A DNA stretch of 64,000 nucleotides from Schizochytrium sp. TIO01. Its lineage: Eukaryota; Protista; Bigyra: Labyrinthulomycetes. The notes below the pieces were generated by a model. It was given only the letters and a program-made list of their open reading frames with translations. It had not been told where the DNA came from and searched no databases. Location: NCBI GenBank assembly GCA_004764695.1, contig SMSO01000032.1, forward strand, positions 5,674,483 to 5,738,482, read 5' to 3'. Shown here in pieces: positions 58,640 through 59,031 of this stretch; within the stretch, counting starts at the first letter, position 1; each line of letters opens with the position of its first letter. A program made the translations under genes and the position numbers.

Positions 58640-59031
58640 TTTGCAAATAAGTCAATGAACAAGGTTTGGCCCTGAGAGAGATTTTTTTGAAATGCAAGTT
58701 GGCCCTAAGAGACCCATAAAAGTTATGCAAATAAGCCACTGAGCAAGGTTTGGCCCTGAGAGAAGAAAAAGTGCTATGCAAGTTGGCCCTGAGAGATCTG
58801 GAAAAGTTATGCAAAATGCTTCTGAGCAAGGTTTGGCCCTACGCGAAAGTTGTTTCATGTGCAAGCTGGCTCTGAGAGATCTAGAAAAGTTATGCAAAAT
58901 GCCTCTGAGCAAGGTTTGGCCCTACGCGAAAGTTGTTTCATGTGCAAGCTGGCTCTGAGAGATCTGGAAAAGTTATGCAAAATGCTTCTGAGCAAGGTTT
59001 GGCCCTACGCGAAAAATGTTTCATGTGCAAG
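58640..59031 (+). repeat. 83-bp tandem repeat (~4.7 units), two GGCYCT-type motifs per unit
   Basis: GARCAAGGTTTGGCCCT at 58657, 58741, 58824, 58907, 58990. Confidence 0.92.

Follow-up and report, generated by a model that had tools for sequence, protein, structure and literature searches.

The window, by which we mean the whole 64,000-nucleotide stretch of Schizochytrium sp. TIO01 DNA that was analysed, contains a scaffold gap of 705 N (34481-35185). Because TTAGG telomere tracts of opposed orientation flank the gap, the window consists of two chromosome ends scaffolded head to head, and its apparent rDNA palindrome is an assembly join. Each chromosome end carries TTAGG repeats, 371- and 411-bp repeats, and a telomere-facing 18S-5.8S-28S unit, the same plan that passages of the preprint on the thraustochytrid Aurantiochytrium describe for its subtelomeres (10.1101/2023.06.15.545109). 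Two intact 5S rRNA genes, identical to each other in sequence, lie in the window, and a third copy is broken off after nt 57, at 58264, where an inserted element begins (Table 1).

Table 1. Features of the 5S loci and of the left end of the inserted element (window coordinates)
Feature	Position	Strand	Remarks
Intact 5S gene, empty target site, behind the subtelomeric kinase	2306-2424	-	
Subtelomeric kinase, likely host, between the two intact 5S genes	6116-8152	-	Published as AurliV-2 ORF 13 (table)
Second intact 5S gene, empty target site	13074-13192	-	
5S rRNA 5' half, nt 1-57, host side of the junction (attL)	58208-58264	+	Identical to the intact copies
Candidate left core arm B, 5S nt 40-50, CGCACTGAGAA	58247-58257	+	From symmetry scan; second-best array-profile match among 216 5S 12-mers
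Candidate 7-bp overlap GTAAAGT, 5S nt 51-57	58258-58264	+	Identity to 5S stops with its final base
Candidate terminal core arm P' of the element, GGCCCTGAGAT on the minus strand, then palindrome TGTCAGCTGACA	58265-58287	-	
Lone inverted degenerate half-site GGCCCTAAGTAC	58374-58385	+	
Array 1: 4 half-sites, direct orientation relative to P'	58413-58615	-	Spacing 75, 52, 52
Array 2: 83-84-bp unit, 9 half-sites inverted relative to P'	58656-59031	+	
Half-sites identical to 5S right arm B' (reverse complement of nt 57-68)	58835-58846, 58918-58929, 59001-59012	+	
Array 3: three 71-83-bp units with CTCGG-N17-CCGAG	59078-59307	+	
805-aa putative tyrosine recombinase	59455-61872	+	Counterpart of AurliV-2 ORF 16; catalytic residues R270, K301, H438, R441, W464, Y473
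Metallophosphoesterase	62381-63040	+	Counterpart of AurliV-2 ORF 382, 660 nt in both
Counterpart of AurliV-2 ORF 1017	63135-63452	-	
AurliV-2 ORF 704 counterpart, 3' part	63664-64000	-	Element runs past the window end

Identity to 5S extends through nt 57, and the element starts at the next base. A preliminary description of this DNA had nt 57-68 displaced by the insertion, which is right for nt 58-68, whereas nt 57 is kept. Inverted symmetry at the junction is strongest between the candidate arms B and P', which agree at 8 of 11 positions on either side of GTAAAGT. The same axis would also permit a 5- or 9-bp spacer; as tyrosine recombinases usually have an overlap of 6-8 bp, we chose the 7-bp spacer. 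The junction thus has the layout of a tyrosine recombinase core site, with inverted arms around a 6-8-bp overlap at the point where homology ends. The first 17 bases of the element (58265-58281) resemble 5S nt 58-75, with AGGGCC and GTCAG in common, and the terminus looks as though it were itself derived from the 5S target.

The right-hand side of this junction opens a run of related sites. A motif, GGCCCT(G/A)AGAGA, recurs 15 times across the first 750 bp of the element, from 58264 to 59012: once as the terminal arm (58264-58275), once inverted at 58374, four times in direct orientation (array 1), and nine times inverted (array 2). The 83-bp array reported previously is real as a repeat (TRF finds an 83-bp unit in 4.5 copies at 58656-59031), but its motif extends well beyond it. 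Every half-site of array 1 adjoins a TGTCA-NN-TG(A/T)CA palindrome, as at the element terminus, and the units of this array copy the terminal 23 bp including the palindrome. Half-sites of array 2 are spaced alternately by 33 and 50-51 bp, and each is preceded by GCAAG. The two arrays have the 12-mer in common and differ in its flanks. Array 3, just upstream of the recombinase gene, is built on a different motif and perhaps provides promoter or second-protein sites; GCAAG, ATGCAA, and CTCGG-N17-CCGAG are further recurring motifs of the subterminal region. Among the 14 internal sites no pair is found facing across a gap of 6-8 bp, which leaves all of them as unpaired half-sites. The spacings of 33, 50, 52, and 75 bp all fall within a quarter turn of whole helical turns, which is weak as phasing because half of all spacings would pass.

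To relate the motif to the target, we collected the array sites by their resemblance to the array's own consensus and not to 5S, and built a profile from 11 of them, excluding the terminal arm and the three exact copies described below. When the 216 12-mers of the 5S gene were scored, nt 57-68 on the minus strand ranked first (12.2) and nt 40-51 on the plus strand second (4.9), with the third at -1.0. The facing-pair score of these two 5S arms was reached in none of 3000 base shuffles of 5S. As far as sequence can tell, the conclusion holds that the array motif would be the half-site motif of the crossover, with both 5S arms mirrored at the level of the motif. The individual sites are a different matter. 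GAGAGA-type sites, the commoner variant of the motif, have 1-2 mismatches in 12 to the element's terminal half-site GGCCCTGAGATA and 4-5 in 12 to the 5S left arm, so they are copies of the element's end first, and the likeness to the 5S left arm that had been claimed for the alternating variant is not borne out. Of the idea that the array stores copies of both target half-sites, the right arm survives, as an exact match, while the other variant follows the element's own end.

The exact match was correctly located and read in the preliminary description: GGCCCTACGCGA, present three times as one variant of the 15-copy motif, is the reverse complement of nt 57-68 of both intact 5S genes. No other 5S 12-mer occurs at the 63,630 positions of the window that lie outside the 5S copies. 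When the 1190-bp subterminal region was dinucleotide-shuffled 20,000 times, 149 of the shuffles contained some 5S 12-mer. The earlier counting of the three as a single independent match is also sound, because units 3 and 4 of array 2 differ at only 2 of 83 positions and the copies go back to one event. Alternation of the exact match with the other variant, as previously described, is confined to the last 2.5 units; in units 1 and 2 (58668, 58752) the slot reads GGCCCTGAGAGA. Starting from the motif, an exact match takes two or three changes, with a chance of 1/135 to 1/5940 per variant lineage, and there are about six half-site variant types. The three changes that make the match sit in a patch where units 2 and 3 differ at 13 of 19 positions. 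Among the differences listed, other copies of the family carry GGCC-TGAGGGGA at this slot in sequencing runs X2, X5, and X9 (loose ends) and a similar variant in X15; for X5 and X15, pieces covering 59001-59012 with no differences listed also occur. Exactness is therefore not universal. In a diverged copy from X9, 10 of 11 differences in 115 nt fall outside the 12-mer, which is not significant. We lean toward selection or conversion as the maker of the exact match, a suggestive observation that is no proof of co-evolution; drift is a lesser but substantial possibility. For the proposal that the sites co-evolve with their target, the copies listed offer no demonstration: other copies differ and are degenerate at the slot, and the match lies in a fast-changing patch. 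A loose end at 58264 in X9 joins a variant of 5S that is changed twice within nt 58-75, once inside the right arm.

The first gene of the element, whose ATG lies 1191 bp from the crossover, encodes the 805-aa protein. A full HMMER scan with this protein returned 12 distant environmental proteins (best E 2e-10). Ten of these 12, the two short ones being left out, were aligned with it, giving 11 sequences of about 20% identity. Thirteen columns are invariant in all 11 sequences and include R270, K301, H438, R441, W464, and Y473, that is, the catalytic R-K-H-R-(H/W)-Y order of the tyrosine recombinase superfamily. Its Atlas neighbours, all from one source, are DUF3435, NDC10_II, and Phage_integrase clusters at 0.95-0.96, with DUF3435 as the first match. 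Phage_integrase (PF00589) matched below the cut-off in 2 of the 12 homologs, and XerC matched 1 of the 11 sequences (E 2e-4). The 805-aa protein itself had no matches in Pfam, PHROGs, or NCBIfam, a PDB sequence search returned XerA alone at E 1.4, and word-based protein searches with the recombinase or its alignment found no relatives. An alignment-based structure model (mean pLDDT 70) is helical with a short sheet around K301, and a single-sequence fold model (pLDDT 38) was of no use. With its catalytic residues kept, the protein is, by sequence, a putative tyrosine recombinase.

The genes identify the element. AurliV-2 is the LE-Chr15 endogenous mirusvirus of Aurantiochytrium limacinum (10.1101/2023.06.15.545109; PMC12606086), called the only known chromosomal mirusvirus integrant in passages of PMC12768974. 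We compared sequences by eye on the parts shown in the published table (Supplementary Data 2, PMC12606086). On those parts, window ORFs match AurliV-2 ORFs 16, 382, 1017, and 704 in order, length, and spacing (95 versus 95 and 212 versus 213 bp between ORFs, window versus AurliV-2); ORF 16 (2418 nt, 805 aa) reads the same as the window protein over the first 400 residues shown, and residue changes are few, e.g., 3 of 219 in the phosphoesterase. The window thus holds the left-end gene set and order of AurliV-2, in the same subtelomeric rDNA/LORE-TEARS setting as far as the published passages describe it. A Polinton-like virus identity was dropped after this match. The HK97 capsid, portal, and terminase genes of AurliV-2, listed in the parts of the table available (PMC12606086), would lie beyond this window. 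ORF 16 has no recombinase annotation in the parts of Supplementary Data 2 that are shown (PMC12606086). The two elements differ in that the published table lacks a 512-bp segment (61849-62361) between the recombinase and phosphoesterase genes, which is bounded by 22-bp direct repeats and contains an ORF of 116 aa as well as, near 62260, short telomere-like repeats; it is present in contigs of X1, X2, and X6 and missing from one X9 contig. They also differ in the kinase, which stands upstream in AurliV-2 alone according to the table as shown. In the episomal mirusvirus AurliV-1, the parts of the published table shown list ORF 726 (792 aa) with NDC10_II and Flp fold matches. This ORF is expressed, was detected by proteomics, and is left without annotation in those parts of the table.

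Coordinates allow the published virus to be placed as well. In the window, the distance from the kinase stop to the 5S start (3692) plus that from the 5S start to the recombinase ATG (1247) is 4939 bp, against 4951 bp from the end of ORF 13 to the start of ORF 16 in AurliV-2. The implied distance from the AurliV-2 crossover to its last ORF is 269.2 kb, and the preprint gives in its text a virus size of 269 kb (10.1101/2023.06.15.545109). Since both the gap and the size agree, it is very likely that published AurliV-2 begins within a 5S gene too, namely the one behind the kinase, a conclusion from coordinate arithmetic and not from sequence comparison. Because the kinase lies between two intact 5S genes, the first gene of the AurliV-2 table, kinase ORF 13, is likely host subtelomeric sequence, and the virus boundary would shift accordingly. 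The window element sits behind 385-bp repeats with no kinase upstream. The window element and the published virus would thus occupy different 5S copies, either through two insertions or through one that was moved by subtelomere exchange.

Taken together, these observations favor recombinase sites, a reading that the preliminary description had reached by inference: the array motif matches the half-site of the crossover, the adjoining gene keeps catalytic residues, and a profile of the arrays finds both 5S arms. That the arrays are recombinase sites of some kind, whether in a provirus or in a transposon, we regard as highly probable, and it is likely that the tyrosine recombinase whose gene lies 1.2 kb inside the element binds the 12-bp motif. 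More specifically, the 83-bp array is probably part of a run of recombinase sites at the left end of a 5S-integrated provirus of AurliV-2 type, and the best reading of the arrays is as accessory and autoregulatory sites at attL of this putative 5S-targeting provirus. The recombinase would cut a core of two 11-bp arms around the 7-bp overlap (5S nt 51-57) and so join the viral genome, as a circle, to a 5S gene that is dispensable and present in many copies, much as temperate phages integrate into tRNA genes. The 14 unpaired internal half-sites would be bound and not cut. They may load extra recombinase into a synapse that sets direction, integration versus excision, and may act on the promoter of the recombinase gene in a regulatory way, like TnpI at the irs direct repeats. 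The copy identical to the 5S right arm would be one member of the enzyme's recognition range. A bolder version, which we hold tentatively and just short of evenly balanced, takes AurliV-2 for a true temperate provirus: the own tyrosine recombinase of this herpes-related mirusvirus of 269 kb would integrate and excise it at 5S nt 51-57, steered by a 750-bp battery of sites including an exact target-arm copy kept in step with host 5S, with extra end copies as satellites mobilised by the same enzyme.

Similar accessory repeats are found in the pSR1 RS site and in the third repeat of the Flp FRT. The arrays are also like TnpI/irs of Tn4430 and Tn5401. According to the passages of PMC7157771, the recombinase site there combines an inverted core with direct-repeat subsites and lies upstream of the gene, and TnpI binding at irs modulates expression. 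The window likewise has core-arm repeats beside the core, 14 further sites of which 4 are direct to the terminal arm; unlike irs, a bacterial resolution site with two direct repeats, it shows two opposed arrays at an integration junction. The phaeovirus attP x attB system, as described in the passages on integration (PMC12993054), also joins a stramenopile large DNA virus, a tyrosine recombinase, and attL plus attR; it differs in belonging to another realm (Nucleocytoviricota) and in its attB, which is no more than a CC or CG dinucleotide where the window has a two-armed site set in an RNA gene of many copies, and subterminal half-site arrays are not described in those passages. By itself, the array is a modest variant of known accessory-site architecture, and the interest is carried by its context.

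The strongest alternative is that the arrays are recombinase sites of a Starship/Crypton-like DNA transposon family that targets 5S and has several non-autonomous copies, with mirusvirus DNA as cargo or joined later by subtelomeric recombination. We consider this unlikely, although contig depth and an inner rDNA set beside the published virus keep it alive. The position of the recombinase as first gene, within 2 kb of the end as in Starships, and DUF3435 as first Atlas match speak for it too. At least half of the words of 58200-61900 were found in 17 of the 24 sequencing runs listed, from 12 studies, one possibly the source of the window; no RNA run among those listed holds the region. Contigs that start inside 5S and enter the element were present in X2 and X6, two of the four runs compared, at 4.2x (X2) and 3.6x (X6) the depth of the recombinase contig, a depth ratio that is no copy number. 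A variant of 59163-59418 stands at 2.7-5.2x recombinase depth and does not run on into the recombinase gene. The deeper junction contigs hint at several 5S-inserted ends per recombinase gene. rRNA genes and LORE-TEARS also lie on the inner side of the published virus, whose entry the preprint ascribes, in the passages concerned, to subtelomeric recombination (10.1101/2023.06.15.545109); this inner set is not explained by a single clean integration. Against a transposon, the next three ORFs are already AurliV-2 genes, the episomal AurliV-1 also encodes its 792-aa protein with NDC10_II and Flp fold matches, and the published element size fits a start at this crossover.

Cryptons are small elements whose one gene encodes the recombinase and whose two ends carry short direct repeats; here viral genes directly follow the recombinase. 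Starships from the families Enterprise, Arwing, and Voyager are giant and have an internal 5S rDNA target, and in the passages available (PMC11162782, PMC10104507) their first gene, like that of the window element, encodes a tyrosine recombinase and lies close to the 5' end, within about 2 kb in both cases. By the same passages, they differ in having fungal DUF3435 captains and no virion genes. DUF3435 is the first Atlas match of the window protein, and it appears there as a feature neighbour alone, with no Pfam match. Cryptons and YREC Polinton-like viruses (PMC12220804) are, in the passages on them, eukaryotic tyrosine recombinase elements thought to use circular donors, and NDC10_II clusters are among the Atlas neighbours of the window recombinase. 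They are small and have no 5S target reported in those passages, whereas the window genes match those of a 269-kb HK97-capsid virus. The window element is filed neither as a Starship nor as a Crypton.

Two other proposals concern who binds the repeats. The repeats could have a role in replicating or packaging the virus or in tethering it to the chromosome, with a different viral or host protein binding them and the arm likeness arising from tandem spreading of terminal sequence. Herpesvirus ends and origins carry repeat arrays, array 1 copies the terminus, and other motifs recur; nevertheless, the 12-mer is common to arrays 1 and 2 despite their different flanks and matches both 5S arms in register, and we judge this proposal improbable. 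The preliminary description also suggested decoys that recruit host 5S-binding factors; in this case the exact copies would draw in TFIIIA/TFIIIC to steer integration to 5S genes. In its favor, nucleotides 57-68 of 5S, going by positions in the Xenopus gene, presumably reach from the A-box, in its 3' part, into the beginning of the intermediate element. This suggestion is very improbable: likeness to 5S ends at nt 68, no C-box stands at the proper distance from an intermediate element (the best match in the subterminal region is 12 of 18, and 195 of 500 shuffles did at least as well), TFIIIA has weak binding to the A-box and stronger binding to the intermediate element and C-box in the passages of PMC12409998, and the arms plus overlap already account for targeting.

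If the provirus reading is right, it offers the first concrete mechanism for mirusvirus entry into a chromosome. A defined att site, an enzyme, and an accessory array would make mirusvirus integration, excision, and latency testable in a cultured, transformable host, and would add a case of convergent 5S targeting outside fungi. The recombinase may also be able to insert DNA of hundreds of kilobases at a safe site that an industrial DHA producer has in many copies. By text search, 5S rRNA, recombinase, and integrase are absent from the main text of PMC12606086, and "5S r" from its supplements. Integrase and recombinase go unmentioned in the available parts of PMC12768974 and PMC10827195, and the passages of 10.64898/2026.07.28.741200 say nothing about this system. 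Our literature search, whose scope stopped short of the Current Biology version, the bioRxiv supplements, and Repbase, all of which may bear on novelty, found no description of this system.

Related loci were absent from the viral and metagenome contigs searched, and DNA patterns for the junction and array returned 0 stretches. A diverged subfamily, about 85% alike at 58321-58450, is present in X1, X5, X9, and X15 and has different sequence upstream of 58321. The 385-bp host repeats (54930-56851) each hold GGCGCTGAAAGA, with an array-profile score equal to that of the 5S right arm, probably by chance.
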